A DNA stretch of 64,000 nt from an uncultured Thermoleophilia bacterium (GCA_963777895.1 CAVZSF010000005.1:391949-455948), one strand, 5' to 3'; positions 5,080 to 63,253 are shown, counted from the stretch's first letter. Notes: generated by a model not told the origin, from the sequence alone. Made by a program: numbers and translations.

Positions 5080-5781
5080 TCACGCGGCCAACGGCCCCGC
5101 GCCCTCCTCCGGCATGCCCTCGTACTGAACGATGTGCCCGGGCATGCCGGCGAACGCGAAGCTGCGGTTCATGTGGTCGCGTTCGTCCAGCCCGATGCGG
5201 CGGAACACGTCGGCCCACGAGTCGAACGGTCCGCGCTCCTGGACGAGCTCGCTCCTCACGGGCTGGTCCTCCCACTCAGGGTGGTCGTCGACGAGCTCCG
5301 CGTACGTGTGCTCGGCGTGGTCCTCGAACTCGGCGTTGAAGAGGAAGGAGCGCCGCAGGTCGGCGCGCGCCATACCCCACGTCATGGCGGAGTAGGAAGC
5401 GACCATCAGGGACGGCAGGGGCTGCGTCATGTAACGGGGGTCCCGGGTGGCCTCCTCCTTCATCTTCTCGTTGATGACGAGCAGGTGCCAGACCTCGGTG
5501 TCCTGGGCCTCGCGGCCCCACCTCAGGACGGCGTCGGCCTCCTGGACCAGCTCCCTGTCACGGTAGTTACGCGTGATGCGCCCGTACTCGCGGGTCTCCC
5601 AGGCACGGTAAGGGATGGGGGCGGTGAGCTCGATCAGCTTCGCCTTGGCGAGCGTCGTCGTGCTCCCTGTGAACATGTCCATGCTGCGGAAGAAGAAGCG
5701 CGCCGTTTGCGAGTAGTCGTACCGCGGTCGCGCCCGCGAAGCCTGCTGTTCCTTCTTGAGGTCGACCTGCACCCGTTCCAC
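5080..5781 (-). CDS. Ferritin-like diiron carboxylate protein, alternative oxidase (AOX)-like
   Basis: 233 aa. Iron-ligand-like motifs occur in AOX order: LIELTA (E), EAQDTEVWH (E-x-x-H), AEFEDHAEH and IGLDERDHMNRSF (compare AOX RADEAHHRDVNH). Confidence 0.5.
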   Translation of the reverse strand: MERVQVDLKKEQQASRARPRYDYSQTARFFFRSMDMFTGSTTTLAKAKLIELTAPIPYRAWETREYGRITRNYRDRELVQEADAVLRWGREAQDTEVWHLLVINEKMKEEATRDPRYMTQPLPSLMVASYSAMTWGMARADLRRSFLFNAEFEDHAEHTYAELVDDHPEWEDQPVRSELVQERGPFDSWADVFRRIGLDERDHMNRSFAFAGMPGHIVQYEGMPEEGAGPLAA

Positions 5782-5975
5782 CGTACCCCCCTTTGCGCGT
5801 CGGGACGAAGGCAGGGTGTCCGTGCGGCCCGCGAGGAAAACCGTTGGCTCGCGCCAGGGATGGACGCCGCGCCACGCCGCGCCTGTAGACTCGGCACGAC
5901 GGGCAGCCGCGGCCCATCACGACTCGTCCCCCAGGGGGACGACGCCGGGCCGCGGGAGAGCCATGGGGGCAACAG

Positions 5976-12627: not shown

Positions 12628-13423
12628 TCAGCCGCCTTGGGGCTGCCGGCCGGAGCCTGCAGTGGCGTCTCCGGCCGGCGGCGCCGGTCTCACCAGCGAC
12701 GCCCTGAAGCGGTAGCGGTCGCCCCGGTAGACCATGTCGCAGGACTCGATGGGCTGGCCGGATTCGTCCTCGGTCAGTTGATGGCAGTGCAGGAGTGGTT
12801 CGCCCAGGGCCAGGCCGAGGAGGCGCGCCTGGTCGGCGTCGGCGGCGACTGCCTCGATGGCGAAGCGCGCCCGCGCCGCTCGAAGGCCATGACGCTCCTC
12901 CAGAACGGCATAAAGGGACGCGGTCGAGAAGTCGACCTCCGGAAGCGTCGGCGCCAGCGCCAGGGGGATGCGGCTGCGGTCGATCAGGATGGGCACGTCG
13001 TCCATGAGTCGAAGCCGCTGCAGCTCGAACAGGAGCCGCTCCGGGGGCGATGCCGAGCGCCTCGGCCTCGTCCAGCGTGGCGGGGCGAAGGCCCGCGGCG
13101 ATGACGCGCGCTGAGGGCCGCAGCCCGCGTGACGCCGCCATCTCCGAGAAGCTCATGAGCGCGTTCGGCGGTTCACCCACGCGCGCTCCCGCGACCGCCC
13201 AGCCGCGCCCCCCGGATCGCTCGAGCGTCCCGCTCCTCTCGAGCTCCGCCAGTGCTCGCCGCAGCGTGACGCGGCTCACCCCGTAGTGCTCGGCCAAGGC
13301 TCGCTCGGGAGGGAGGCGGGTCCCGCCGGCGAAGGCGCCCCGGCCGATCTCGTCGACCAGATCGCGTTGCACGCGCTGGTAGCGGAGCTGCAGCCTGTCC
13401 AGCCCATGTGGCTCGTCGCGCAT
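12628..13423 (-). CDS. GntR/HutC family transcriptional regulator (DasR-like), one frameshift
   Basis: An N-terminal GntR HTH reads RLPPERALAEHYGVSRVTLRRALAELERSG. A UTRA domain (ORF 12628..13005) lies in the next frame. An extra C in a run at about 13030 causes the shift. Confidence 0.8.
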
Positions 13424-38140: not shown

Positions 38141-38903
38141 CGTCGTCGGTCTCTCCGAGGTAGGCGGCGATCACAGCGGGGTCCTTCTGGATCATGCGCG
38201 GCGGCCCCTCGGCGATCTTGAGGCCGCGGTCGAGCACGACGATCTCGTCGGAGACGTCCATGACGAGTCCCATGTGGTGCTCGACGATGACCACGGTGAT
38301 GCCGCTGTCGCGCATCCGGAAGAGGGTCTGGACGAGCTCTCGCGCCTCGCTCGCGTTGAGGCCGGCCGCGGGCTCGTCGAGCAACAGCAGCCGGGGCTTC
38401 GTGGCGAGGGCGCGGGCGATCTCGACGAGACGGCGGATGCCGGCGGGGAGGTCCGCCGCCGGAACGGCGAGCCACTCCTCGATGCCGATCAGGCGCAACA
38501 GCCGGCCGGCCTCTTCGCGTGCCTCCCGGTCCTCGGCGAGCGCCGCGGGCAGCCGCAGCATGGCGGCGGAGAACCCGCGGCGCTGGTGAGCCTGCCGGCC
38601 GACCATCACGTTCTCGCCCGCCGTCATCTCCTCGAACAGCTGCGTGTTCTGGAAGGTCCGGGCGACCCCGGCACGCACGGTCTCGCGCGGGCTTCGTCCG
38701 ACGAGCTCGGCGCCGTCGAAGACCACCGAACCCTCGTCCGGCCTGTCGAAGCCGGTCAGGGTGTTGAAGAGGGTCGACTTGCCGGCGCCGTTCGGCCCGA
38801 TCAGCGCCTTGATCGTCCCTTCGAACACGTCGAACGAGACGTCGTCGACCGCGATGAGCCCGCCGAAGCGCTTGGTGACGCCGCGTACCTCGAGCAGGCT
38901 CAC
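38133..38903 (-). CDS. livG: Branched-chain amino acid ABC transporter ATP-binding protein (LivG-like)
   Basis: Walker [13 protein letters not shown]. Confidence 0.85.
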   Translation of the reverse strand: MSLLEVRGVTKRFGGLIAVDDVSFDVFEGTIKALIGPNGAGKSTLFNTLTGFDRPDEGSVVFDGAELVGRSPRETVRAGVARTFQNTQLFEEMTAGENVMVGRQAHQRRGFSAAMLRLPAALAEDREAREEAGRLLRLIGIEEWLAVPAADLPAGIRRLVEIARALATKPRLLLLDEPAAGLNASEARELVQTLFRMRDSGITVVIVEHHMGLVMDVSDEIVVLDRGLKIAEGPPRMIQKDPAVIAAYLGETDDDA

Positions 38904-42321: not shown

Positions 42322-43785
42322 ATGAGCATCTCGACTGTCCCGGGAGCGCGCAAGCGCGCCCTGAAGGTCCGCCTCGTGGAGCCGGCGCCGCCTTCCGTCA
42401 ACGTCCTCTCGTACGGGGCCTACCCGCGACTTGGACTGCCGATGATCGGCGCCGCGCTCAAGCAGGCCGGCCACGACGTCGTCATCTACTGCGGCCAGGT
42501 GGCGCCGATCGACCATGCCGACGTCGCGTCGGCCGATGTCGTCGGCATCTCGACGACCACCTCCACCGCGGTGGAGGCCTATCGGCTGGCCGACGAGCTC
42601 CGTTCCTCCGGCATACCCGTGGTCATCGGCGGCCCTCATCCCACGTTCGTGCCGGAGGACGCCCTCGCCCATGCCGACTTCGTCGCGCGCGGCGAGGGCG
42701 GGGAAGGGCTCATGGTCGAGCTGTGCGACGCGCTCGGCGGCGGGCGCGAGCTGGAGAGCATCCGGGGGCTGTCGTTCTGGCGCGACCAGGAGCCCGTCCA
42801 CAACGAGCTTCGGGAACGCTGCCGCGATCTTGACTCGCTCCCGCTGCCGGACCTGTCGCTGATCGCCGGGTCGGACCGCATCAGGGAGACGCCCATCATC
42901 ACGAGTCTCGGCTGCCCGTTCGCCTGCACCTTCTGCACGGTCAGCATGATGTTCGGGCGGGCCTACCGGGCGCGCAGCCCCGAAAGCGTGGTCGCCGAGT
43001 TGGCGGCGAGGCGGCCGAAGAGCGTCTTCTTCTACGACGACAACTTCGCGGCCGACAAACGGCGCGTGAAAACGTTGCTCCGGCTGATGATCGACAACGA
43101 CCTGACGATGCCGTGGATGGCCCAGGTGCGGGTCGACGTGGCGCGCGACGAGGAGCTCCTCACGCTGATGCGCCGCTCGGGCTGTCGCCGTCTCTGCCTC
43201 GGCTTGGAGTCGGTCGACCAGGCCACGCTGGACGGCTACGCGAAGTCGCAGACCGTCGAAGGCATCCAGGACGCCGTCCGCGCCCTGCACGCCCACGGCA
43301 TCAGGTGCCATGGCATGTTCGTCCTGGGCGCCGATACCGACACGGTGCAGACGATGCGCGATACGGTCGACTTCGCGAAGCGACACGACCTCGAGACCAT
43401 CATGCTCAATGTCCTTACTCCTGCCCTGGGCACCCGCCAGTACGAATCCATGGACGCCGGCGAGCGCATCTTCGAGAAACGCTGGCAGTTCTACGACGGC
43501 CAGCACGTCGTGTACACGCCGAGCCAAATGACCCCGTCCGAGTTGCAGAGGAGCTTCGTGGACGGCTACAGGCGCTTCTACTCCTTGCGCCGCGGGTTGG
43601 GATACCTCATGCGCCTTCGCTTCGGTGATCTCGCCGCGCATCTGTGGGGATGGTGGTTCATCCGCCGCTGGCAGCGAGAACCGGTCAATCGCCAGTACAT
43701 CAAGGTCCTTGACGCCTTCGGCGAGCGCGCCGCGCCTGTCGGGAGCGAGCGCGCCGGCTCGCCGGCACTGCGATCCTCCCCGTAA
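42322..43785 (+). CDS. B12-binding domain radical SAM protein
   Basis: An N-terminal cobalamin-binding Rossmann segment (DVVGISTTTSTA...PVVIGG) precedes the radical SAM cluster CPFACTFC. Confidence 0.8.
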   Translation: MSISTVPGARKRALKVRLVEPAPPSVNVLSYGAYPRLGLPMIGAALKQAGHDVVIYCGQVAPIDHADVASADVVGISTTTSTAVEAYRLADELRSSGIPVVIGGPHPTFVPEDALAHADFVARGEGGEGLMVELCDALGGGRELESIRGLSFWRDQEPVHNELRERCRDLDSLPLPDLSLIAGSDRIRETPIITSLGCPFACTFCTVSMMFGRAYRARSPESVVAELAARRPKSVFFYDDNFAADKRRVKTLLRLMIDNDLTMPWMAQVRVDVARDEELLTLMRRSGCRRLCLGLESVDQATLDGYAKSQTVEGIQDAVRALHAHGIRCHGMFVLGADTDTVQTMRDTVDFAKRHDLETIMLNVLTPALGTRQYESMDAGERIFEKRWQFYDGQHVVYTPSQMTPSELQRSFVDGYRRFYSLRRGLGYLMRLRFGDLAAHLWGWWFIRRWQREPVNRQYIKVLDAFGERAAPVGSERAGSPALRSSP

Positions 43786-45944: not shown

Positions 45945-47222
45945 TTGCTGCTCCAGGGCAGCCTCAAGGAGTTCAACCTCCCCAACATCTTCCAGCTGGT
46001 CAAGATGAGCGCCAAGACGGGCGCCCTGACGATCCGCGCCGAGAAGGAGTGGGGCAAGATCTTCTTCCGCGACGGGCAGATCCACTATGCCTTCTCCGTG
46101 CCGCAGTCGCTGCCTCTCGGCGAGCGGCTCGTCAACTCCGGCAAGATCACCCCCGCCCAGCTCAAGGAGGCGCTCGCCGCGCAGAAGAAGGCGCCCGACG
46201 CCGGCCGCATCGGCAACATCCTGCTCGACAAGGGCTACATCCAGCGCGACGACCTCGAGCAGGTGGTGCGCGAACAGATCCAGGACGCGGCCTTCAACTT
46301 CTTCGGCTGGACCGAGGGCGAGTTCGAGTTCACCGCCGACGAGGAGGCCATCGACCAGGACATCCTCGTCGAGATGAACGTCGAGAACGTCATCATGGAG
46401 GGCTGCCGGCGCATCGACGAGTGGGAGCTCATCTTCCAGCAGCTCGGCTCGCTCGAGCGCATCCCGCACCTCGCCTACGACGAGCGCGTCGACGAACGCG
46501 GCGACGTGACCTTCACCGCCGAGGAGTGGCGCGTCATCGTGCACGTGGATGGGCACTCCGACATCAACACGGTGCTGCACGAGTGCGGGCTCGACCGCTT
46601 CCACGGCGCCAAGGTCATCTACAGCCTCTACTCCAGCGGACTCATCATGGTGACCGACGCGGTGATCGAGGCGATCGGCAAGGGTCTTGCGATCGCCATC
46701 CGCGGCCCGATCGACATCTACAACGAGATCTTCCTCGCGACCCTCACGGATGCCAACGTGACGAAGCAGATGCGCGTGGAGCTGATCGACGACAAGGAGA
46801 TCGAGATCCCGATCGTCGCCGGCGTCGTCCCCCTGGGCGGCGAGACCGGGAAGGGCCTCGACGAGCAGGCGGCCGGCGCCGCCGTCGAGGATGTGGTCGT
46901 CTTCACCGCCAGCGCATCGTCGCCGATGAAGGCATGGGAGCGCCTCGGCGGTGAGAGCTCGGCCTTCGTGATCCTCGCCAACGCAAACGACGCCGACAGC
47001 GTGAGCCGGACCCGGGACGACCTGGCGTTCGTGCGCGGTCTCGGCGCCTCGCCCATGGTGCTGGCCACGTACGCCTCGATGGGCGACGAGCCGGTCCCGA
47101 AGGACCAGGTCGCCAAGCTCCTCGGCCTCAACGGAGACGTCCCGATCCTCGCCTGCCATCTGCGCGACCGCGACTCGGTGATGGCCGTCGTGAAGACGGC
47201 CCTGGACCTGGTCGCCTCCTAG
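45945..47222 (+). CDS. DUF4388 (PatA-N-like) domain protein with an MshEN-like segment and an uncharacterised C-terminal alpha/beta domain
   Basis: [17 protein letters not shown]...GALTI...GQIHYA indicates DUF4388. [17 protein letters not shown]...[16 protein letters not shown] is T2SSE_N/MshEN-like. TTG start with a gagagagg RBS. Confidence 0.5.
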
Positions 47223-47295
47223 TCTCCTCACCCGCTTGTCAATCGTCCTGCCGGGGGGCAAGATTGGCTGCTCCCCAGCGAAAGGACGACCACCC

Positions 47296-48267
47296 ATGTA
47301 CTACCCGAGCTACCGCATGAGGCGGCTGCGCAGGACCCCGGTCATCCGCCGGATGATGCGCGAGACGGCCCTCTCGCCGGATGACCTGATCTACCCGCTC
47401 TTCGTCATCGCCGGCGAGAACGTGAAGAACCCGATCGGGTCGATGCCGGGCTGCTACCAGCTCTCGATCGGCAACCTCATCCCCGAGGTCCGCGCGGTGC
47501 GCGACCTGGGGATCCCGGCCGTGCTGCTCTTCGGCATCCCCGCCCACAAGGACTCCGCGGCAACGACCGCCTACGATCCCGAAGGCGTCGTCCAGCTCGC
47601 GGTGCGCGCGATCAAGGACGAGTTTCCGGAGCTGCTCGTCATCACCGACGTCTGCCTCTGCGAGTACATGGACCACGGTCACTGCGGCGTCGTGCAGGAC
47701 GGCGAGGTGCTCAACGACGTCACCCTCGAGCTGCTCTGCAAGATGGCGATCACCCACGCCGAGGCTGGGGCCGACATGGTGGCGCCGTCCGACATGATGG
47801 ACGGCAGGGTGTCGGCCATCCGTAACGCTCTCGACGACGAAGGCCTGCACGACACCGCGATCATGGCCTACTCGGCGAAATTCGCATCGGGCTTCTACGG
47901 GCCCTTCCGGGAGGCAGCGGAGTCGGCGCCGGCGTTCGGCGACCGCAAGACCTACCAGATGGATCCGCCCAACGGGGAAGAGGCGGTCCGTGAGGCGCTG
48001 CTCGACATCGAGGAGGGCGCCGACATCATCATGGTGAAGCCGGCGCTGCCCTATCTGGACGTCATCAAGGCCATCAAGCAGGAGACGCGCTTCCCGCTGG
48101 CCGCCTACAACGTGAGCGGCGAGTTCGCCATGATCAAGGCGGCGGCCGAGAAGGGCTGGCTCGACGAGGAGCGCTGTGTGATGGAGGCGCTCACCGGCAT
48201 CAAGCGCGCCGGCGCCGACCTCATCATCACCTACCACGCCAAGGACGCGGTCGGCTGGCTGGAGTGA
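47296..48267 (+). CDS. hemB: Porphobilinogen synthase (delta-aminolevulinic acid dehydratase)
   Basis: Active-site region [14 protein letters not shown]. Schiff-base lysine context [11 protein letters not shown]. Confidence 0.95.
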
Positions 48268-48274
48268 GGCGCGG

Positions 48275-48314
48275 GTGACGGGACGGCGGGGCGGCGCCCC
48301 GCCGTCCCGTCACC
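48275..48314 (+). terminator. Perfect 17-bp inverted repeat hairpin after hemB
   Basis: ggtgacgggacggcggg - gcggcg - cccgccgtcccgtcacc. Confidence 0.6.
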
Positions 48315-48382
48315 GCGCGGCCGCGCCGCCTCTCGCGAAAGGTTTGCGCCGCCCCCCGTAAATCGGTCAGAATCAGTCTGCA

Positions 48383-49719
48383 TTGGACGTCGATCCCACC
48401 CAGAACCCTCACGTCGTGGACGGCCCGTCGGCCGACGGCGCGGACGGCCCGCCGTCCGCTGCCGCGGACGGCCCGTCCGCGCAGCCTTCCGACGGGCCCG
48501 GAGAGGCGCGGCCCGGCGACGCCGTCGCGCCGCCGCGCCTCGTCGCCTGGGAGGTCACGCGCAGCTGCAACCTGGCCTGCGCGCACTGCCGCGCGTCGGC
48601 CGTCCACGGGCCGTACCCGAACGAGCTCACCACCGACGAGGCCTTCACCCTCGTCGACCAGATCGCCTCGTTCGCGAACCCGATCCTCATCCTGACCGGC
48701 GGCGACCCGCTGATGCGGGAGCGACGTCTTCGACATCGCCGAGCGCGGCATAGCACAGGGGTTGCGCGTCGTCATGTCGCCGAACGGCACGCTGGTCACC
48801 CCCGAGGTGGCGCGCCGCATGAAGGACGTCGGCATCGCCCGCATCAGCATCTCGGTCGACTTCCCGACGGCCGACGAGCACGACGCGTTCCGCGGCGTGC
48901 CCGGCGCCTACGAGGGCGCGATGCGTGGCATCCGGACGGCGATCGAGGCCGGCGTCGAGGTCCAGATCAACTCCACGATCACCAAGCTCAACGCCCACCA
49001 CCTGCCCGCGCTGCTCGAGCTCGCCGAGCGCGTCGGCGCCGTGAGCTTCCACCCGTTCATGCTGGTCCCGACAGGGCGCGGCAAGGAGCTCGAGGAGCAG
49101 GAGTTGCCGCCGGAGGCCTACGAGGACGCGCTCAACTGGATGTACGACGCGCAGCAAGGCTCCGCCCTCTTCCTCAAGCCGACCGACGTGCCGCACTACT
49201 GGCGCGTGATGCGCCAGCGCGGCGCCGAGGACCGGAAGAAGGGGAAGGGCGTGGACGGCGCACCCGGCGGCCATCCTGGCGCGCATCCCCCCGCCGCCGG
49301 CCACCCCAGCGCCGTGTCGGCCACCGGACATCCAAGCGTTGCGCCCGTCCGGTGCCCATCCCCACGCCCAGTTCGCTGCCCACCCGCACGCCCACGGCGG
49401 CATGAACACGCTGAGCCGCGGCTGCCTCGCCGGCATCGGCTTCTGCTTCGTCTCGCACGTCGGCCGCGTGCAGCCCTGCGGCTACTTCGACGTCGAAGCC
49501 GGCGACGTGCGCAGGCAGCCGTTCCCGGAGATCTGGCGCACGTCGCCCCTCTTCACCGACCTGCGCGACTTCGACGGCCTCAAGGGCAAGTGCGGCGCCT
49601 GCGAGTTCAAGAGGGTCTGCGGCGGCTGTCGCGCGCGCGCCTACGAGGCGACCGGCGACTACATGGCCGAGGAGCCCTACTGCGCCTACGTGCCGAAGGG
49701 CTGGTGCGAGCCGGCCTGA
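48383..49719 (+). CDS. Radical SAM/SPASM-domain protein, AhbD/NirJ-like, in the heme locus. Two frameshifts are present. A DGP-repeat N-terminal extension and a His-rich internal insertion are unusual.
   Basis: N-terminus [16 protein letters not shown] (CxxxCxxC). Frame 2 (ORF 48762..49874) has the radical SAM core. Frame 3 (ORF 49339..49719) has SPASM cysteines CGYFD...[18 protein letters not shown]. The His/Pro-rich linker reads [14 protein letters not shown]...[16 protein letters not shown]. The N-terminus reads [29 protein letters not shown]. Confidence 0.7.
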
Positions 49720-49798
49720 GGGCTTGCACGCGCGGTCCGGCGGGTGCGGCTCGGCCGCCGGCCCGCCTCGATCCGCTCAGGCTCGCCCTGCCTTCCGG

Positions 49799-50254
49799 CT
49801 ACTCCTCGAAGTCCTCGTCGAAGAAGTGCCGCTGCAGGCAGAGCAGCTCGTCGACCAGGCCAGCCTTCCCGTAGACGCGCCGGGCGACTTCGTTGTCGTC
49901 GGCGGTGATCACCTGCACCTGGCTGCAGCCCGCCTCCTGGAAGCGACCCACCGCCTCGGCGACCAGCGCCGAGCCGATCCCGAGTCCACGTGCGCCCTCG
50001 ACGACAAGCAGGTCGACGATCTCGCCGGTGGGGTCGCCCATGTACAGGTCGAGGTGGACGGCGTGTGCCAGGAAGCCCACAAGCTCGCCGTTGAGCAACG
50101 CGAGCAGGACCCCGTAGCCGGGCTGCTCGAGGTAGCGTGCGACAAGCGCCTCGTCGGCGCGTGCGGGGTGGTGGAAGCCCACCCCCATCTCGACGATGAG
50201 CGGGAGGAGGGCCGAGGCGTCGGCCGGCGTGGCGGCGCGTATCTCGAGGTTCAC
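49799..50254 (-). CDS. GNAT family N-acetyltransferase (single domain)
   Basis: The acetyl-CoA motif region reads LLVVEGARGLGIGSALV. The GTG start overlaps the upstream TGA (GTGA) and follows a ggaggga RBS. Confidence 0.7.
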   Translation of the reverse strand: MNLEIRAATPADASALLPLIVEMGVGFHHPARADEALVARYLEQPGYGVLLALLNGELVGFLAHAVHLDLYMGDPTGEIVDLLVVEGARGLGIGSALVAEAVGRFQEAGCSQVQVITADDNEVARRVYGKAGLVDELLCLQRHFFDEDFEE

Positions 50255-51217
50255 CCTCCCTCCGAAGAAAGCAGCATGAGCAGGTCGTCGTCGACGAAGC
50301 CGAGCGATCGGTAGAGGTGCTTGGCCCGTTCGTTGCGGAAGGCGGCGGCGATGAGCGTGTGCGCCGTGTCTTCGGGCTGGATGCGCTCGAGCGCTTCCCG
50401 CAGCAAGGCGCGCCCTACGCCCTGGTCGCGTTGCGCGGCCGTTACGCAGATGTCCTCGATCACCGCGCACCGCTGCGCGTTGAAGAGGCTGCGGTAGAAG
50501 TACCAGGCGACGACGCCGACGACCTCGCCGTCCGGCTCGGCGACCAGCGTTCCGCAGGACTTGTCGCCGAGCATGGCCAGGACCGACTCGGGCGTCGCCG
50601 TCGTCGCGCTCTCCGAAGAAGGCCGCCATCTCTCCCATGAGACCGACGATCGCCGGGACATCGCTCTCGCGCGCGTCGCGGATCCCGAGGCGCGCGGCGG
50701 ATGCCGCCACGTCGAGGGCGGCCTCGAGTGTCAGGCGCATCGTCCACGAGCCGCCCTCGTCGAGTTCAAGCAGCTCGAAGCCCGCGCGCTCGTAGAGATG
50801 ACGCGCGTGTCGATTGCCATCGGCGACGCTCAAGCTCAGCGTCCGCACGCCGCTCTCGCGGGCAAGAGCGATGGTCGCGGCGAGCAGCTTCGTCCCAATA
50901 CCCTGGCTGCGGAAGCCCTCCTGCAGCGCCAAGCCGAGGCCGGGCACGTCGTCCCCCAGGAAGCCATAGCCCGGCCGGTCGCTGGTGAAGCGGCGGTACC
51001 AGCACGCCCCGACAGGACGGCCGTCCACCTCGGCGACGAAGCCGTCGTCGCCCGGACGCGGCCAGCCGTCCACGTAATCCGCGATGCGGGGCTCGGCCAG
51101 GAGCTCGTCGACGGCCGGAGGGGATGACCTGGCAGGTCTGTCCCAGCTGACCGCCTCGGCCACCATCTCCGCGATGAGGCCCGCGTCACCGGCTCCGATC
51201 CGTCTCAACGTCGCCAT
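50251..51217 (-). CDS. Tandem two-domain GNAT acetyltransferase (MshD-like architecture), one frameshift at about 50690
   Basis: Domain 1 carries RSQGIGTKLL. Domain 2 lies in the adjacent frame (ORF 50251..50661, QRDQGVGRALL...NERAKHLYRSLGF). Confidence 0.7.
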
Positions 51218-51227
51218 GGGCGTGCCC

Positions 51228-52196
51228 TCACTCGAGGTGCTGCTCGAGCAGCAGCGTCTCTTCGGTGAACCCGAGCGAGCGGTACAGGTGCTTGGCGCGC
51301 TCGTTCTCGAAGCCGGTGCCGATGCTGATCTCCGCGACGTCCTGCCGCTTGATGCGGGCGAGCGCCTCTTCGAGCAGCGCTCGCCCGATGCCCTGGTCCC
51401 GATACGCGCGAGTGACGGCCGCCTCGGCGATGATCACCGATCTTCTTGCGTGGAAGAGGCCACGGGCGAGCGTCCAGGTGACGACGCCGACGACGGCGCC
51501 GTCGAGCTCCGCGACGACGGCGCCGCAGGCGTCGTCACCGAGGAACTGCACGACCCAGTCGTCGGTAACCGGCGAGGGCTCCTCCCACTCGTCGGCCATC
51601 TCGCGTATGAGGCCGGCCATGGCCGCCGCGTCGGCGGCCGCCGCCGGCCGGATGGTCGCGCCGGCCGCCGCGGCTCCACGTGCTCGCCGGCGCGCCCGCG
51701 CCTCGCCGTTCTCGGTGTCGCTGCCGAAGCGTCGCTCCAGCCCGATCGTCTCGTCCCGGAACCCCAGCCGCCGGTAGAGCGTCAGGGCGGCCTCGTTGGT
51801 GGGCTGCGCCGCGATCTCGGCCACGTGCAGACCCATAGGCTCGAAGCGCCGCAGGGCGGTCTGCAGGAGTGCCGTGGCGATGCCCTGCCGCCGGTGGTCG
51901 GCACGCACCACGAGGTGGCCGACCTCGACACTGCGAGCCTCCCTGAAGAAGCTCGGGAACACGGCGTAGCTGAGCATCGCGACGACCGCCTCCCCGTCGC
52001 GCGCCACGAGCAGCCCGTTGTCGCTGCCCTCCATGAACCGGATCACATCCGACTCGTGTGCGTCGGACGTCTCCCCTTCGGCCTCGCGAAGCTCGGCGAG
52101 GAGCGCGATGACCACCCTCGCATCCGCCGGCGTCGCATCGCCGATGCTGAACGTAGCCGTGCCAGCCTCCTTCGGTCCGGGCAGGGCACCCGGCAC
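51228..52196 (-). CDS. Tandem two-domain GNAT acetyltransferase, paralog of the adjacent gene
   Basis: Domain 1 has HRRQGIATALL. Domain 2 has YRDQGIGRALL...ENERAKHLYRSLGF, nearly identical to the motif in the neighbouring gene. Confidence 0.7.
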   Translation of the reverse strand: MPGALPGPKEAGTATFSIGDATPADARVVIALLAELREAEGETSDAHESDVIRFMEGSDNGLLVARDGEAVVAMLSYAVFPSFFREARSVEVGHLVVRADHRRQGIATALLQTALRRFEPMGLHVAEIAAQPTNEAALTLYRRLGFRDETIGLERRFGSDTENGEARARRRARGAAAAGATIRPAAAADAAAMAGLIREMADEWEEPSPVTDDWVVQFLGDDACGAVVAELDGAVVGVVTWTLARGLFHARRSVIIAEAAVTRAYRDQGIGRALLEEALARIKRQDVAEISIGTGFENERAKHLYRSLGFTEETLLLEQHLE

Positions 52197-52284
52197 GCGC
52201 GGTCGGGCGCCGCGAGCGCGAGCTCAGACGGCGTTTCCCCTGCGAGCGCGTAGTATAGTCGCCAGCCTGAAGCGTACGAACGGC

Positions 52285-53580
52285 ATGGAGGCACGTTTGA
52301 ACCTGGAGACGTCGGCGCGCCTATACGAGGAGGCGCTCAAGTACATCCCCGGCGGCGTCAACTCGCCGGTGCGCGCCATGAAGGGCGTGGGCATGCCGCA
52401 TCCGCTCTTCGTGGCGCGCGGCAAGGGCGCCCACATCTGGGACGTCGACGGCAACGAGTACGTCGACTTCGTCTCGTCGTGGGGCCCGATGATCCTGGGA
52501 TGGGGCCACCCCGACGTGCTCGGCCGCCTGCACGCCGTCCTCGGCGACGGCACGAGCTTCGGCGCGCCCACGGCCGTGGAGATCGACCTTGCCCGCCTCA
52601 TCTGCGAGGCCGTGCCATCCGTCGAGCTCGTACGCATGGTCAACTCCGGGACCGAAGCGACGATGAGCGCCGTGCGCGTCGCCCGCGGCTTCACCGGCCG
52701 CGAGAAGATCGTGAAGTTCATCGGCTGCTACCACGGCCACTCGGACGCCTTCCTGGCGGCCGCCGGCAGCGGCGTGCTCACCCTGTCGCTCCCGGACAGC
52801 CCGGGCGTGACCAGGGGGACGACCGCCGACACCCTCCTGCTCGAGTACAACGACGTGGAGGGCCTGACGGCGCTGTTCGAGGAGCGCGGCGAAGAGATCG
52901 CCGCGCTCATCGTCGAGCCCGTGGCCGGCAACATGGGCGTCGTGCCTCCGCAGCCGGGCTTCCTGGAAGCCTGCCGCGAGCTGTGCACGCGCTTCGGCGC
53001 CGTCCTCATCTTCGACGAAGTGATCACCGGCTTCCGGGTGGCGTGGGGCGGGGCGCAGGAGCGCTTCGGCGTGCTGCCCGACCTCACGACGCTCGGCAAG
53101 ATCATCGGCGGGGGGCTCCCGGTGGGCGCCTTCGGCGGCCGCCGGGAACTCATGGAGACGGTGGCCCCGCTCGGCGCCACGTACCAGGCCGGCACGCTCT
53201 CGGGAAACCCGCTGGCGATGGCGGCCGGCGTGGCGACGCTCAGCGTCCTGTCGGAACCCGGCGTGTACGAGCGGCTGGAGGCGCTCGCCGCGCGCGCGGC
53301 GGCGGGCCTCGAGGAGGCCGCGGCGCAGGGCGAGCGCCCCGTCACGCTCAACCGTGTCGGCGCCATGATGACCATGTTCTTCTGTGGCGGTCCCGTCACG
53401 GGCTTTGCCGACGCGAAGCGAGCCGACACGGCCGCCTTCGCGTCCTACCACCGCCACATGCTGGAGCACGGCGTCTACCTCGCGCCCTCCCAGTTCGAGT
53501 CGGCCATGATCTCGCTGGCGCTGACCGACGACGACCTGGCGCAGGCGCGCGCGGCGGCGATGTCCTGGTTCGCCGGTTGA
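52285..53580 (+). CDS. hemL: Glutamate-1-semialdehyde 2,1-aminomutase
   Basis: A full-length class III aminotransferase with motifs YIPGGVNSPVRA and IFDEVITGFR. Confidence 0.95.
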   Translation: MEARLNLETSARLYEEALKYIPGGVNSPVRAMKGVGMPHPLFVARGKGAHIWDVDGNEYVDFVSSWGPMILGWGHPDVLGRLHAVLGDGTSFGAPTAVEIDLARLICEAVPSVELVRMVNSGTEATMSAVRVARGFTGREKIVKFIGCYHGHSDAFLAAAGSGVLTLSLPDSPGVTRGTTADTLLLEYNDVEGLTALFEERGEEIAALIVEPVAGNMGVVPPQPGFLEACRELCTRFGAVLIFDEVITGFRVAWGGAQERFGVLPDLTTLGKIIGGGLPVGAFGGRRELMETVAPLGATYQAGTLSGNPLAMAAGVATLSVLSEPGVYERLEALAARAAAGLEEAAAQGERPVTLNRVGAMMTMFFCGGPVTGFADAKRADTAAFASYHRHMLEHGVYLAPSQFESAMISLALTDDDLAQARAAAMSWFAG

Positions 53581-53592
53581 GAGGGGGAGATC

Positions 53593-54252
53593 ATGCGCGA
53601 CGGTGAGAAGCGCAGGGTGCCGTCGGTCACCGTGCCGCGGCTCGCGCTCTACCTGAGGAAGCTCCGCGAGTTGCGCGGGCGGGGCGTGACACGTGTCTCG
53701 TCTCGGGACCTGGCCGAGCTGATCGACCTGAACCCGGCCCAGATCCGCAAGGACTTCTCTTACTTCGGGGAGTTCGGCACACGTGGGGTGGGTTACGAGG
53801 TCGAGCGCCTGATCGACGAGATCACCCACTCGCTGGGGCTCGACCAGACCTGGAATCTTGTGATCGTCGGGGCCGGCCTGCTGGGCACAGCACTGGCGCG
53901 GTACCGCGGCTTCAGCGAGCAGGGGTTCAAGCTGATCGGCATGTTCGACGTCTCCGAGAAGGTGATCGGCGCCAGCTACGGCAGCGGCCGCGTCCAGTCG
54001 GTGGCCGAGCTCGAGGACTTCTGCGCGGCCAACCAGGTCGACATCGCCATCGTGGCGGTGCCGCCGGCGGACGCCCAGGCCACCGTCGACCGGCTGGTCG
54101 TCGCCGGCATCCGCGCCATCCTCAACTTCGCGCCCGTGAAGGTCAGCGTGCGTAAGGGCGTGACGGTGCGGCAGGTCGACCTCTCGAGCGAGCTGATGTT
54201 CCTCTCGTACTCGCTCGCCTCGGGCGCCGCCGGGGGCGACGAGTCGGCGTGA
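53593..54252 (+). CDS. rex: Redox-sensing transcriptional repressor Rex
   Basis: An N-terminal wHTH reads RLALYLRKLRELRGRGVTRVSSRDLAE. The Rossmann segment reads VIVGAGLLGTALA. Confidence 0.85.
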   Translation: MRDGEKRRVPSVTVPRLALYLRKLRELRGRGVTRVSSRDLAELIDLNPAQIRKDFSYFGEFGTRGVGYEVERLIDEITHSLGLDQTWNLVIVGAGLLGTALARYRGFSEQGFKLIGMFDVSEKVIGASYGSGRVQSVAELEDFCAANQVDIAIVAVPPADAQATVDRLVVAGIRAILNFAPVKVSVRKGVTVRQVDLSSELMFLSYSLASGAAGGDESA

Positions 54253-54727
54253 TGCGAGGCGGCAGGGGCGGCGGCGTGGCTTGCCGCGCAGCCTGGCGAT
54301 AGCGCGCATCGCGGGGTCGGCGCCTCTCCCTTCGGCGTGTCGTCCTCGCATCCGCCGGGGGCTGCGGTCTGCCACTGTGCCTGAGTATTTAGTACAACTC
54401 GCTGTATCTTGATTGACACTGCATCGGGCCGGGTGTAGACACGGTCTGCTCTTCTGTTTGCGTACGTCGTCTGCTCTCGATGACCCCGCCCGATCCCGGG
54501 CCTGCCATCGAGGCACAGGGGGATGTGAACGACCATCGCGGTGAAGCTGGCCTCTTTCTCCTCGCCGTGCCTCTGCATGCAGACGAACCCGGGCCTGCGT
54601 GGCCCCGCCCGGCCCATCCTCACGCTCCTCGACGCGGCGTGACCGTAGAAGGAGGTGACGACCGCAGGCTTCCTCAGGTCCTGTTCGTTCCCGAAGTCCT
54701 TTGAGGGCATCAGCATGGAGGCATCGA
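54253..54727 (+). promoter_or_regulatory. Long (475 nt) lower-GC leader/intergenic region upstream of the BMP-family transporter operon
   Basis: AT-rich segment ctgagtatttagtacaactcgctgtatcttgattgacactgc. Listed ORFs in this region lack coding-type third-position GC. Confidence 0.35.
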
Positions 54728-60779: not shown

Positions 60780-61190
60780 GTGAACCACGTCCAGTTCCAT
60801 GAGGAGAAGTGCATCGCGTGCGACATGTGCTCGCAGGTCTGCGCGCTGAGCAAGCTCGACCGGGTGCAGACTGCCGGAGCGTGCATCAAGATCACCCGGG
60901 ACCCTTCGGAGTACATGGGCGGCATGCGCTGTTCCGTGTGCGACATGTCGCACGACAGGGTCTGCGTCGACGCGTGTCCCACGGAGGCCTTGGTGTACGA
61001 CGAGGCCGCCGGGGTGATCAGGTTCGTGCAGGACCTCTGCAGCGAGTGCGACGCTTGCCTCGACGCGTGTCCGCACGTCCATGTCGACGCCGTCACCCAC
61101 AGGATCATGATCTGTGACCTCTGCGACGGCGATCCCCTTTGCGTCCAGTGGTGTCCCGAAGGCGCGCTCACGTGGGAGGCTCGGTCATGA
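60780..61190 (+). CDS. 4Fe-4S polyferredoxin (electron-transfer subunit for AOR)
   Basis: Several CxxCxxCxxxCP clusters: CIACDMCSQVCA, CSVCDMSHDRVCVDACP, CSECDACLDACP, CDLCDGDPLCVQWCP. Confidence 0.75.
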   Translation: MNHVQFHEEKCIACDMCSQVCALSKLDRVQTAGACIKITRDPSEYMGGMRCSVCDMSHDRVCVDACPTEALVYDEAAGVIRFVQDLCSECDACLDACPHVHVDAVTHRIMICDLCDGDPLCVQWCPEGALTWEARS

Positions 61191-63001
61191 AGTACGGCGG
61201 CTACACCGGCAAGTTCCTCACCGTCGATCTGAGCGCCCGGTCCTTCGGCGAGATGCCGGTGACAGATGAGCTCGCCGAGCACTATCTCGGCGGTCGCGGG
61301 TTCGTCGCCAAGCTGCTCTACGACTTGCTGCCTCGCGGCATCGACCCGCTCGGCCCCGAGAACGTGATCGTCTTCGCGACCGGGCCGGCAACGGGCACGA
61401 TGATCCCGACCGCGAGTCGCATCGCGGTGGGCGTGAAGAGCCCGCAGACCGGCACGATCTCGGCGAGCTACATGGGCGGGCACTTCGGCCCGGAGCTCAA
61501 GTACGCGGGCTGGGACGGCATCGTCATCACGGGCGTCTCCGAGAGCCCGGTGACGCTGGTCGTCGACGACGACCGGATCGAGCTACGGGATGCGACGGCG
61601 CTCTGGGGCAAGGACACCGTCGAAGCCCAGGCTCTCCTGTCGCGCGATCTCGGCGAGGACTTCAAGACGGGCGCCATCGGGCCCGGCGGTGAGAACGGCG
61701 TCGTGTACGGCACGTTCATGCACGTGCAGCACGCCGCCGGCCGCGGCGGCCCGGGAGCCGTGTTCGGCAGCAAGAGGCTCAAGGCCGTGGCGGTCCGCGG
61801 CACCGGCGGCGTACGCGTCAGCGGCCCGACCGCCGACTACATCGCGGCCTGTAAGGAGCTGCACGACATCATCATGGAGAACCCCGTGCGCCCCGCCTTC
61901 CGGTGGGCGGGCACGACCGGCATGCTGCCCGTCGTGAACGAAGCGGTCGGCCTGCCATACAGGAACCACCAGGACGACCGCGCCCCTGACGTCGCCCCCA
62001 TCCACAACGAGGAGCTCGCGAAGTACGTGCAGCACTACGAGGCCTGCAGCGGGTGCAACGTGATCTGCGGCTCGGTGGTCGAGTTCGAACGCAACGGCAA
62101 GGCGTACCGGTCCGAGCGCATCGAGCACGAGTCGATGTGGGCGCTCGGACCGAACTGCGGCATCGTCGACCTCCCGGCGATCATGGAGGCCAACTGGCTC
62201 TGCGACCGCCTGGGCATCGACACGATGAGCGCGGGGTCTGCGATCGCCTGGGCCATGGAGATGACCGAGAAGGGCCTGCTCACCTCCGCAGACACCGACG
62301 GCCTCGACTTCACGTTCGGCAACGCCGACGTCCTCAGCGAGGCCGTGACCCGCATCGCGGCGAAGCAGGGCTTTGGTGAAGCGCTCGCGCAGGGTGCGCG
62401 CGGCGCGGCGCGGCGCTTCGGCAAGGGCGAGGAATACGCGATGCAGGTGAAGGGCCTGGACCTGTCGGCTTACGCGCCGCGGGCCTTCAGTGGCATGGGG
62501 CTCTCGTTCGCCACGACCGCTCGAGGCGCCGATCACAACAAGGCCTTCACCGTCGCGGCCGAGTTTCTCGGCGTGCTCGGCGACTACGATCGGTTCTCGC
62601 TCGAGGGCAAGCCTCATCTCGTCAAGACGATGCAGGACAGCACGGCGATCATCGACTCGCTGATCATGTGCATGTTCACCGTCGACCTGGGCATCAGCGT
62701 TGAGCTGTACGCGCGCTGCGCGAGCCTTCCGACCGGCATGCAGATCACGGCTGACGACGTGTACACGATCGGCGAGCGCATCAACACCGTGGAGCGCCTC
62801 TTCAACATGCAGGAGGGCTTCACGCGCAGCGACGACACCCTGCCTCGGCGGTTCGCGAGCGAAGCGGCGCCGTCGGACGAGGGACAGCACACGCTCGACG
62901 TCGATGCGGTGATGGACGAGTACTACGCCGAGCGCGAATGGGACGCCGCCGGCAACCCGACTCTCGAGCTGCTGGACCGGCTCGGCATCGGGTCGGCATG
63001 A
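61187..63001 (+). CDS. Tungsten-containing aldehyde:ferredoxin oxidoreductase (AOR family)
   Basis: MKYGGYTGKFLTVDLS N-terminus. 605 aa with AOR family conservation throughout. ATGA overlaps the ferredoxin stop. Confidence 0.9.
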   Translation: MKYGGYTGKFLTVDLSARSFGEMPVTDELAEHYLGGRGFVAKLLYDLLPRGIDPLGPENVIVFATGPATGTMIPTASRIAVGVKSPQTGTISASYMGGHFGPELKYAGWDGIVITGVSESPVTLVVDDDRIELRDATALWGKDTVEAQALLSRDLGEDFKTGAIGPGGENGVVYGTFMHVQHAAGRGGPGAVFGSKRLKAVAVRGTGGVRVSGPTADYIAACKELHDIIMENPVRPAFRWAGTTGMLPVVNEAVGLPYRNHQDDRAPDVAPIHNEELAKYVQHYEACSGCNVICGSVVEFERNGKAYRSERIEHESMWALGPNCGIVDLPAIMEANWLCDRLGIDTMSAGSAIAWAMEMTEKGLLTSADTDGLDFTFGNADVLSEAVTRIAAKQGFGEALAQGARGAARRFGKGEEYAMQVKGLDLSAYAPRAFSGMGLSFATTARGADHNKAFTVAAEFLGVLGDYDRFSLEGKPHLVKTMQDSTAIIDSLIMCMFTVDLGISVELYARCASLPTGMQITADDVYTIGERINTVERLFNMQEGFTRSDDTLPRRFASEAAPSDEGQHTLDVDAVMDEYYAEREWDAAGNPTLELLDRLGIGSA

Positions 63002-63013
63002 GGTGAGGCGTGG

Positions 63014-63253
63014 ATGACCGTGAAGGTCGTGCTGTTCGGCAACCTTGCGCGCCTGCTGCCAGAGGGGTCGACCCACAACAGCGCGCTCGTGACGGTGGAA
63101 CACGGAGCGACCGTGGAAACGTTGCTGGACGGCCTGGGCGTGCCGCCCGACAGTCGGGGCTACGTGACTGTGAACGGCGAGCACTCCGTTCGGGACACGG
63201 TTCTCAACGAGGCCGACGAGGTGCGCGTGATCGTGCCTCTGTGCGGGGGTTGA
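63014..63253 (+). CDS. MoaD/ThiS family sulfur-carrier protein
   Basis: 79 aa ending in GG with a beta-grasp pattern. Confidence 0.7.
   Translation: MTVKVVLFGNLARLLPEGSTHNSALVTVEHGATVETLLDGLGVPPDSRGYVTVNGEHSVRDTVLNEADEVRVIVPLCGG

Follow-up and report, generated by a model that had tools for sequence, protein, structure and literature searches.

The question raised by this locus is whether a radical S-adenosylmethionine (SAM) gene lying among heme genes encodes a familiar enzyme in a familiar setting, or one with new parts and new partners. The stretch studied, hereafter the window, is 64 kb of DNA (~70% G+C) from an uncultured Thermoleophilia (Actinomycetota) bacterium. An earlier note on this DNA had described, between hemB and hemL, a radical SAM/SPASM gene with a repetitive N terminus and a His-rich insertion, together with three GNAT acetyltransferase genes and rex. 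This inventory was borne out, since all of these genes were found, and the outer boundaries given to the locus, 47296 and 53580, fall exactly on the hemB ATG and the hemL stop. The interpretation favored here, with a probability of roughly 0.72, is that the locus is a conserved hemB-ahbD-(GNAT)-hemL-rex block in which the radical SAM gene is an orthologue of ahbD, the breaks in its reading frame are errors, the inserts in its product arose by slippage and the GNAT genes are generic. The genes concerned are as follows.

47296..48267, plus strand: hemB (porphobilinogen synthase), 323 amino acids from the ATG; PF00490 508 bits, NF006762 514 bits
48383..49719, plus strand: ahbD (predicted radical SAM/SPASM heme b synthase), 445 codons after removal of two extra bases
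49799..50254, minus strand: G3, single-domain GNAT, 151 amino acids; PF00583 58 bits
50251..51217, minus strand: G2, two-domain GNAT (G2a and G2b), 321 amino acids after removal of an extra G at 50608
51228..52196, minus strand: G1, two-domain GNAT (G1a and G1b), intact, at most 322 amino acids; two Pfam GNAT stretches
52285..53580, plus strand: hemL (glutamate-1-semialdehyde 2,1-aminomutase); TIGR00713 581 bits, cutoff 527
53593..54252, plus strand: rex (redox-sensing repressor); NF003992 255 bits, cutoff 226; PF06971 and PF02629

The GNAT genes G1 to G3 run on the minus strand, towards ahbD and away from hemL, an orientation that had been missed before. The rex gene starts 12 nt past the hemL stop, and a TTG at 47236 is an alternative start for hemB.

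Profile scores and cysteine motifs together mark the radical SAM gene product as an AhbD orthologue, as opposed to a NirJ, an AhbC or a peptide maturase. The protein read from ahbD once the two extra bases are removed (the repaired protein) was compared with TIGR04545, the AhbD 'heme b synthase' equivalog model, which has a cutoff of 500 bits. Without its two inserts the repaired protein scored 511.8 bits in a single stretch over profile positions 1–339, and its closest intact relative, P0001, scored 511.9 bits. At full length the score was 498.1 bits, 1.9 short of the cutoff; this shortfall counts against the assignment, and it is explained by the gap that the inserts open in the alignment. 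The scores with other models were 329 bits for NirJ2, 213 for NirJ, 207 for AhbC and 200 for NirJ1 (cutoffs 500–650), and peptide-maturase models gave 100–150 bits against cutoffs of 265–725, including 149 against 265 for the mycofactocin maturase and 101 against 381 for PqqE. A homologue search found more than 7,800 proteins, the top ones named 'heme b synthase', with identities of 70–73% to Thermoleophilia 'heme b synthase' proteins and 49–51% to AhbD of Methanosarcinaceae.

The earlier prediction of an AhbD-like enzyme for oxygen-independent coproheme decarboxylation is supported by these values (498–512 bits with TIGR04545 against a cutoff of 500). In the label 'AhbD/NirJ-like', the first half stands and the second does not, the NirJ, NirJ1 and NirJ2 models giving 200–330 bits against cutoffs of 500–650. 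No evidence was found that points away from AhbD and towards another tetrapyrrole-tailoring step, which had been offered as a second option, and the peptide- and sulfatase-maturase models, a grouping named beforehand as fatal to the prediction, lie far below the AhbD score. Two features of the protein carry its catalytic motifs.

48566..48589, plus strand: CX3CX2C radical SAM cluster motif (C62, C66, C69; CNLACAHC), invariant in the 30-sequence alignment A1
49402..49719, plus strand: SPASM domain, from PF13186 and alignments, starting at a conserved Met

The CxxxCxxC core and the CGAC...CGGC motifs noted before are both present, the former as CNLACAHC. The cysteines of the SPASM region are C347, C354, C365, C403, C406, C412, C415 and C433. 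The last five match CX2CX5CX2CX17C exactly, which is the C-terminal motif of AhbD (PMC10452713), and the cluster-binding cysteines are invariant in the alignment. The AhbD of Methanosarcina barkeri has an eight-Cys 'full SPASM motif', and not every AhbD has the full motif (PMC10452713). Seven of these eight cysteines are found in the window protein, which has Asp268 at the first position and C354 as an extra cysteine. The sequence around D268 (~49185–49187) is KPTDVPHY, as against KATCAPHY in AhbD of methanogens and Deltaproteobacteria, and Asp at this position is invariant in all the Thermoleophilia, Actinomycetota, Chloroflexota and allied homologues aligned. Judged from these alignments, Asp268 is a property of the clade and nothing special to the window, and this suggests that auxiliary cluster I in the Actinomycetota/Chloroflexota branch is Asp-ligated or held by three cysteines. 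No AhbD structure was found in the PDB.

By homology to the M. barkeri and Desulfovibrio vulgaris enzymes, a [4Fe-4S] cluster on C62, C66 and C69 would cleave SAM reductively, and the 5'-deoxyadenosyl radical so formed would take hydrogen from the two propionates of iron-coproporphyrin III. The auxiliary clusters of the SPASM domain would carry the electron away, and the reaction is predicted to yield heme b with no oxygen required. The window enzyme is like these two in its CX3CX2C motif, its C-terminal Cys motif, its end-to-end alignment with the TIGR04545 hidden Markov model and its adjacency to hemB. It differs by Asp268, by inserts of ~31 amino acids at the N terminus and ~43 amino acids in a linker and by two frameshifts, and it has no ahbA, ahbB or ahbC nearby.

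In the window, ahbD occupies three reading frames and not one open reading frame (ORF), and an ORF listing shows three overlapping pieces. Real frames in this DNA have a G+C content at third codon positions (GC3) of 0.95–1.0, and along ahbD the third-position signal passes from phase 1 to phase 2 near 48700–48720 and from phase 2 to phase 0 near 49300–49350. The GC3 codon signal is at least 0.95 in every segment of the ahbD core and is uninformative only within the His-rich insert. A single switch was seen in G2, near 50608. When the whole window was scanned for such switches, those at ~49300 and ~50600 were recovered, with antisense noise too high for an error rate to be calibrated. The frame changes had been missed in the earlier note, where the ellipsis in the His-rich peptide spans the second of those in ahbD.

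A second assembly, L001 (ENA ERZ25039545, a 251-kb contig), is syntenic with window positions 38418–59413 and 99.4% identical, with 129 substitutions (an average of 0.6%) and 28 insertions or deletions (indels) over ~21 kb; the HemB proteins of the two are identical, and an exact search for this protein pointed to another carrier besides L001, a contig exceeding 1 Mb that presumably gave rise to the window. Base-by-base alignment placed the three lesions of the window precisely.

48720, plus strand: extra A, GGGAGC in the window vs GGGGC in L001; breaks the ahbD frame
49315, plus strand: extra T, absent from L001; breaks the ahbD frame inside the linker insert
50608, in G2 (minus-strand gene): extra G, absent from L001; breaks the G2 frame

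L001 reads through all three of these lesions and has lesions of its own, an additional CC in ahbD at window position 49344 (a C3 vs a C5 run) and an additional G in G3 at 49870, so that neither assembly shares a frame-breaking indel with the other. The AhbD protein of L001, P0005, is 99% identical to the query over the 67% of it that is covered, and reads through site 48720; G2 is called in L001 as one intact gene of 321 amino acids. Removal of the bases at 48720 and 49315 was sufficient to give a single intact ahbD ORF, and choice of the frame-preserving allele at each site gave an intact ahbD of 445 codons, a G2 of 321 amino acids and a G3 of 151 amino acids. The ahbD-GNAT stretch carries 12 substitutions in 4 kb, below the 21-kb average of 0.6%, which is not what would be expected of a decaying region. 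L001 was placed in a Nanopore-only series made by Flye assembly with one round of Medaka polishing, and its accession is 18 away from that of L082/L028 (MFD, Microflora Danica, metagenome-assembled genome, or MAG). The likeliest explanation of the three window lesions, two in ahbD and one in G2, is that they are single-base errors of Nanopore consensus, which the comparison of the two assemblies makes a confident though not a certain reading, and ahbD is most probably intact in the organism.

Some observations sit poorly with that explanation. About nine coding indels separate the window from L001, and five of them fall within 2.2 kb of ahbD and GNAT sequence; the three lesions of the window lie outside long homopolymers, so that a real process of mutation or decay is possible; and an exact 24-mer scan of Joint Genome Institute (JGI) metagenomes for a third assembly gave no match. 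These are the points from which one would argue that the frameshifts are real and that ahbD and G2 are decaying to pseudogenes, for instance where ChdC is used, heme is taken up or anaerobic heme synthesis is no longer needed. Such decay would account for the frame breaks of the window (two in ahbD, one in G2), for the further ones in ahbD and G3 of L001, by which ahbD is broken in both known genomes of the species, and for their clustering, those of the window lying outside the classic long homopolymers. However, the lesions differ between genomes that are 99.4% identical, and decay would have to have struck each of them separately and very recently. The codon usage and all catalytic residues are preserved, substitutions are sparser here than in the flanks, and a lesion of the same type is found in an ordinary permease gene of L001, both assemblies being Nanopore-only. 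Decay is considered unlikely on this evidence, although it survives better than the other alternatives.

The permease lesion is the third in L001: an additional G at ~1020 (window 39438) in a livM-like ABC permease gene that is intact in the window and uncalled in L001. Differences over the 21 kb are by far densest in the intergenic region 54264–54566, 3' of rex, where 18 of the 28 indels and 18 substitutions are found; this may be a hypervariable noncoding region or a locally poor assembly.

In L001 the gene is annotated as two proteins, a 'radical SAM' protein of 327 amino acids and a 'SPASM' protein of 105. The conserved Met-Asn codons at 49402–49405, ATGAAC, embed a TGA in the frame of the 48383 start codon, and any upstream shift into that frame produces an ATGA overlap at 49402 and with it the split annotation. 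Programmed frameshifting and a genuine division into radical SAM and SPASM proteins were both rejected as the best reading, since the overlap follows automatically from the conserved codons and the first window frameshift would leave little of the core of the radical SAM domain.

The favored reading also holds that the setting of ahbD is a conserved one. The order MFS-DUF4388-hemB-ahbD-[GNAT(s)]-hemL-rex was found to be conserved in ~40 MAG loci of Thermoleophilia/Actinomycetota. The hemB-ahbD pair is also present in Deltaproteobacteria, Chloroflexota and Coriobacteriia, and in Methanosarcinaceae hemB lies within ~4 kb of ahbD. No second AhbD/AhbC-like paralogue was found in the window or the Thermoleophilia loci. 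Scans for signature motifs of SUMT (cobA), hemA and hemC gave nothing in the window or within 10 kb on either side in the relatives' loci, a result that tells against the favored reading. As positive controls, the same scans recovered hemA, hemC and cobA next to ahbD in Coriobacteriia, and in Methanosarcinaceae they picked up hemA and hemC in its vicinity. Of the genes that make up a siroheme-type (Ahb) cluster, neither ahbA/ahbB nor ahbC nor cobA/SUMT lies beside ahbD in the window or the Thermoleophilia loci.

AhbD in Gram-positive bacteria with the coproporphyrin-dependent pathway has already been described bioinformatically (Chem Rev 2026, PMC13564367). There, actinobacterial AhbD occurs with early heme genes and no other neighboring Ahb gene, as it does here, and the window fits the role proposed for such homologues, that of an oxygen-independent substitute for ChdC. 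The Coriobacteriia relatives differ in carrying a siroheme-type cluster, so Actinomycetota use both contexts. Their loci (L065, 3239–13835; L070 and L080) have the complete order hemA-hemC-cobA-ahbC-hemB-ahbD-hemL, the paralogue there giving 570 bits with the AhbC model for a truncated query, and their AhbD ORFs begin with GHP-repeat N termini such as GGHPGGHPGGHP. On the other side of hemB in the window, a DUF4388/PATAN gene (45945–47222) adjoins its 5' end with a gap of 14–74 nt, and the same position is kept across the Thermoleophilia loci; its product has an MshEN-like motif of the cyclic di-GMP-binding type (NF053729, 56 bits).

The GNAT genes are the part of the block that varies. Pfam confirmed five GNAT domains in three tandem genes, two each in G1 and G2 and one in G3, as had been proposed. 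The GTG start of G3 overlaps the G2 stop (GTGA), and in the gene call of L001 G1 starts at a GTG at 52115. None of the GNAT proteins reached the cutoff of any NCBIfam model. The description 'MshD-like' did not hold: with the mycothiol synthase model TIGR03448 (cutoff 163.1) G1 scored 40.7 bits, G2 37.8 and G3 29.7, each over a single domain. G1 and G2 have the two-GNAT-domain architecture of MshD in common, but differ from it in these scores (38–41 bits vs 163, a single-domain match) and in having arisen by the joining of GNAT genes that remain separate in relatives. Nor are the genes recent tandem duplicates, as the near identity of the motif ENERAKHLYRSLGF between copies had been taken to mean. 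Pairwise identities between domains are 28–35% except for G1b and G2b at ~50% (overall range 28–51%), and these two are 62% identical in DNA, the longest common tract being 15 nt. The motif ENERAKHLYRSLGF itself has five synonymous differences between G1b and G2b; to judge by these figures it is a conserved GNAT element and no sign of recent duplication.

A homologue search with G1 returned the L001 copy and one other match, of 39%, too little to be informative in a family of this size. A G1b-type GNAT (35–70% identity) stands beside hemL, between ahbD and hemL, in nearly all of the ~40 Thermoleophilia loci, and G1b is the orthologue of the relatives' single GNAT adjoining hemL. Genes of the G2a and G3 types are optional among relatives, the G3 type (50–72% identity) being confined to closer ones, while G1a, G2b and the two-domain fusions occur in the window and L001 only. 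The number of GNAT domains ranges from 0 to 5 across relatives, and no GNAT was found at the locus in L037 or in any non-Thermoleophilia hemB-ahbD-hemL locus examined. The claim that a GNAT array in a heme cluster is unusual stands for the number of domains and fails for the presence of a GNAT as such, which nearly all of the relatives share. From this distribution the GNATs look like generic acetyltransferases accreted lineage by lineage at the divergent spacer by hemL, and not like a module of the heme pathway. The G1b type would be old in the clade, with the others added later and fused into two-domain proteins in this lineage.

The spacer between G1 and hemL contains one conserved element in the window.

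52251..52259, plus strand: −10-like box TAGTATAGT, upstream of hemL; clade-conserved

Most Thermoleophilia loci have a single copy of the box GCGTAGTATAGT, invariably ahead of hemL. A palindrome, TTGTG-N8-CACA(T), lies 13–18 nt upstream of the GCGTAGTATAGT box in at least 21 of 42 loci, with five more recognized by eye; positions 12629–12671 of L003 give an example of box and palindrome together. The box is kept and the palindrome is missing in the window, L001, L002, L021 and L024. A search of the whole 64-kb window for TTGTG-N8-CACA with at most one mismatch gave zero matches against ~4 expected by chance, and a search near hemB and hemL of the window for a Rex operator of the TTGTGAA-N4-TTCACAA type with up to three mismatches gave no convincing site.

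The rex gene of Streptomyces shares a transcript with hemACD, and its autoregulation works through a Rex operator (ROP) site (PMC5355995). The two systems are alike in the linkage of rex to heme genes and, in the Thermoleophilia relatives, in a TTGTG...CACA palindrome over the promoter. They differ in that rex follows hemL in the window and does not precede hemACD, that the relatives' palindrome matches only the outer half-sites of ROP and that the window has no such site. The linkage of rex with heme genes is read here as an ancestral actinobacterial trait, and redox control of hemL-rex is plausible for the clade on the strength of the promoter sequences, though the window itself shows no such sign. 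The suggestion that the adjacent rex hints at redox control is in this way plausible for relatives with a Rex-operator-like palindrome 5' of hemL and overstated for the window, which has no such palindrome and where the adjacency of rex and heme genes is of a known kind.

It could be that the GNATs are coupled to tetrapyrrole synthesis, acetylating a pathway enzyme or an amino-bearing intermediate under Rex control exerted through the promoter region shared with hemL. The retention of a G1b-type GNAT by hemL, and its sharing a spacer with the Rex-operator-like palindrome in relatives, do allow a functional tie and in this respect speak against the view of the GNATs as generic. In nearly all Thermoleophilia loci a gene of the G1b type separates ahbD from hemL and points away from the latter, and the palindrome stands by the conserved −10 box in at least 21, and probably 26, of the 42. 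However, the whole block is syntenic, including the MFS transporter and DUF4388 genes, and the adjacency may merely have been inherited. A coupled GNAT would also have to be reconciled with its absence from L037 and from the hemB-ahbD-hemL loci outside Thermoleophilia, with a domain count of 0–5, with the lack of a family-level assignment, with the opposite strand and with the palindrome's absence from the window. Coupling is judged quite unlikely on balance, and accretion of generic acetyltransferases is preferred.

The inserts in AhbD remain to be accounted for, and the repeats within them are set out below.

48411..48477, plus strand: 24-nt tandem repeat, 2.8 copies (DGPS/A), found by repeat search; Tandem Repeats Finder (TRF) score 85
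49242..49371, plus strand: linker insert of ~43 amino acids, rich in His, Pro, Gly and Ala, directly 5' of the conserved HPHAHGG; species-specific
49342..49394, plus strand: 24-nt tandem duplication, 2.2 copies, part of the linker insert region; TRF score 71

The DGPS/A repeat described at the N terminus is real (period 24, 2.8 copies, 48411–48477) and forms the core of an insert of ~31 amino acids (48413–48505). Within the repeat, at 48463, the window and L001 differ in length by 6 bp, with the frame kept. The N-terminal start is shared with L002; most relatives start MHHPHAENPH...ARPGDA and are free of repeats. The internal His-rich segment is also real, again with a TRF period of 24, except that HPHAHGG, which had been counted as its end, belongs to the conserved family motif HPHxHGG and is therefore outside the insertion. 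The exact peptide at ~49300–49345 is uncertain; the assemblies differ there (T at 49315, CC at 49344). In ~36 relatives the linker is an invariant 25 amino acids, and among 108 homologues its median is 25.5 amino acids with 3 His, as against ~69 amino acids with 8 His in the window. In other lineages the same loop carries unrelated low-complexity expansions of 62–111 amino acids, rich in Ser/Gly or Arg/Glu. An AlphaFold model of the relative P0001 (predicted template modelling score, pTM, 0.82) has 20 disordered residues at the N terminus and a linker loop that is coil at a predicted local distance difference test score (pLDDT) of ~60–66.

The simplest reading of the two inserts is that they are species-specific expansions of 24-nt repeats, presumably through replication slippage in disordered regions tolerant of length. 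This follows from the period-24 arrays at both sites, the 6-bp polymorphism, the invariant linker of the relatives, the unrelated expansions elsewhere and the disorder in the model. The N-terminal repeat and the linker insert most likely have no catalytic role, and none of the observations calls for one in binding metal or heme.

One difficulty for slippage is that the window linker has the most His of the 108 homologues, so a function is possible. One interpretation of this is that the linker, and possibly the N-terminal repeat, is adaptive and supplies extra ligands for metal or heme iron, or a docking site for ferrochelatase or a heme chaperone. The linker has a near-invariant His in HPHxHGG, H333, conserved in at least 90% of the alignment; His-rich linkers or GHP-repeat N termini recur in AhbDs of Chloroflexia and Coriobacteriia; and the Soret band of the substrate shifts on binding to M. 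barkeri AhbD, which is compatible with an axial ligand from the protein (PMC10452713). Set against this, the insert is limited to one species-level lineage and made of recent tandem repeats, ~36 relatives keep the invariant short linker, unrelated Ser/Gly or Arg/Glu repeats are tolerated at the same site elsewhere and the loop is a low-confidence coil in the model. An adaptive linker is accordingly regarded as improbable, and slippage as the better account.

Further features of the window touch the block less directly, the nearest being a hairpin behind hemB.

48274..48314, plus strand: GC-rich hairpin, perfect 19 bp, directly 3' of the hemB stop and ~70 nt upstream of the ahbD start; no U-tract

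The region around it (48262–48335, 74 nt) has a predicted fold of −62.4 kcal/mol with z = −5.4 against shuffles. Candidate roles for the hairpin are those of an actinobacterial-type, factor-independent terminator or attenuator, or it may be a repeat element. An Rfam scan of the window gave zero matches, and a scan of 47.0–54.8 kb for sigma-70 promoters and terminators gave no useful result. Elsewhere in the window, an aldehyde:ferredoxin oxidoreductase gene, a marker of the anaerobe type, was found at 61187–63253 (AFOR_N 247 bits, AFOR_C 410 bits), followed by a gene for a ThiS/MoaD-like protein of 79 amino acids. A B12-binding radical SAM protein is encoded at 42322–43785; its best model is BchE (165 bits vs a cutoff of 481), its counterpart in L001 does not differ from it, and two distant paralogues lie upstream in L034. 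The presence of the oxidoreductase and the B12-type radical SAM gene is compatible with an anaerobic or facultative lifestyle. Exact-protein lookups with the oxidoreductase and with an M42 peptidase, meant to reach beyond the ends of the window, matched no recorded sequence. A well-coded ORF on the minus strand at 5080–5916 (~278 amino acids, GC3 0.89) has E..H-type motifs by eye; it was tried as an alternative oxidase and rejected, having no Pfam match.

Two further readings of the locus fare worse than those above. Under the first, the His/Pro-rich expansions of linker and N terminus would be selected for capturing iron or coproheme, and the G1b-type GNAT, which in relatives shares with hemL a divergent promoter bearing a Rex-operator-like site, would be a redox-controlled acetyltransferase that tunes tetrapyrrole flux; this is very improbable, and if true the two would amount to a so far unreported tier of regulation over anaerobic heme synthesis in Gram-positive bacteria. 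The second, that the enzyme is not a heme synthase but of the NirJ/AhbC type, another tetrapyrrole-tailoring enzyme or a peptide maturase, is barely credible: it could appeal to a common SPASM subgroup and to the second-best model, TIGR04053 (371 bits vs a cutoff of 395), but the AhbD equivalog leads by ~130 bits while the NirJ, NirJ1, NirJ2, AhbC and maturase models stay below their cutoffs, the genuine AhbC paralogue of the Coriobacteriia locus L065 is only 29% identical, and the neighbors are hemB and GNATs with no precursor-peptide gene nearby.

The locus is best seen, then, as that of a familiar enzyme in a familiar type of setting, in a clade about which little is known; its oddities are repeat expansions and probable sequencing errors. 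It carries a caution, for a known enzyme can look exotic when three reading frames are joined unnoticed and the repeats of a floppy loop are read as a metal site. What is gained is the recognition of AhbD with hemB, hemL and rex as a stable block across ~40 uncultured Thermoleophilia. A further gain, which enzymologists can test, is the Asp in place of the first SPASM Cys together with the HPHxHGG motif throughout the Actinomycetota/Chloroflexota branch, and the Rex-operator-like palindrome on the hemL-rex promoter of relatives is likewise testable at the level of the clade.

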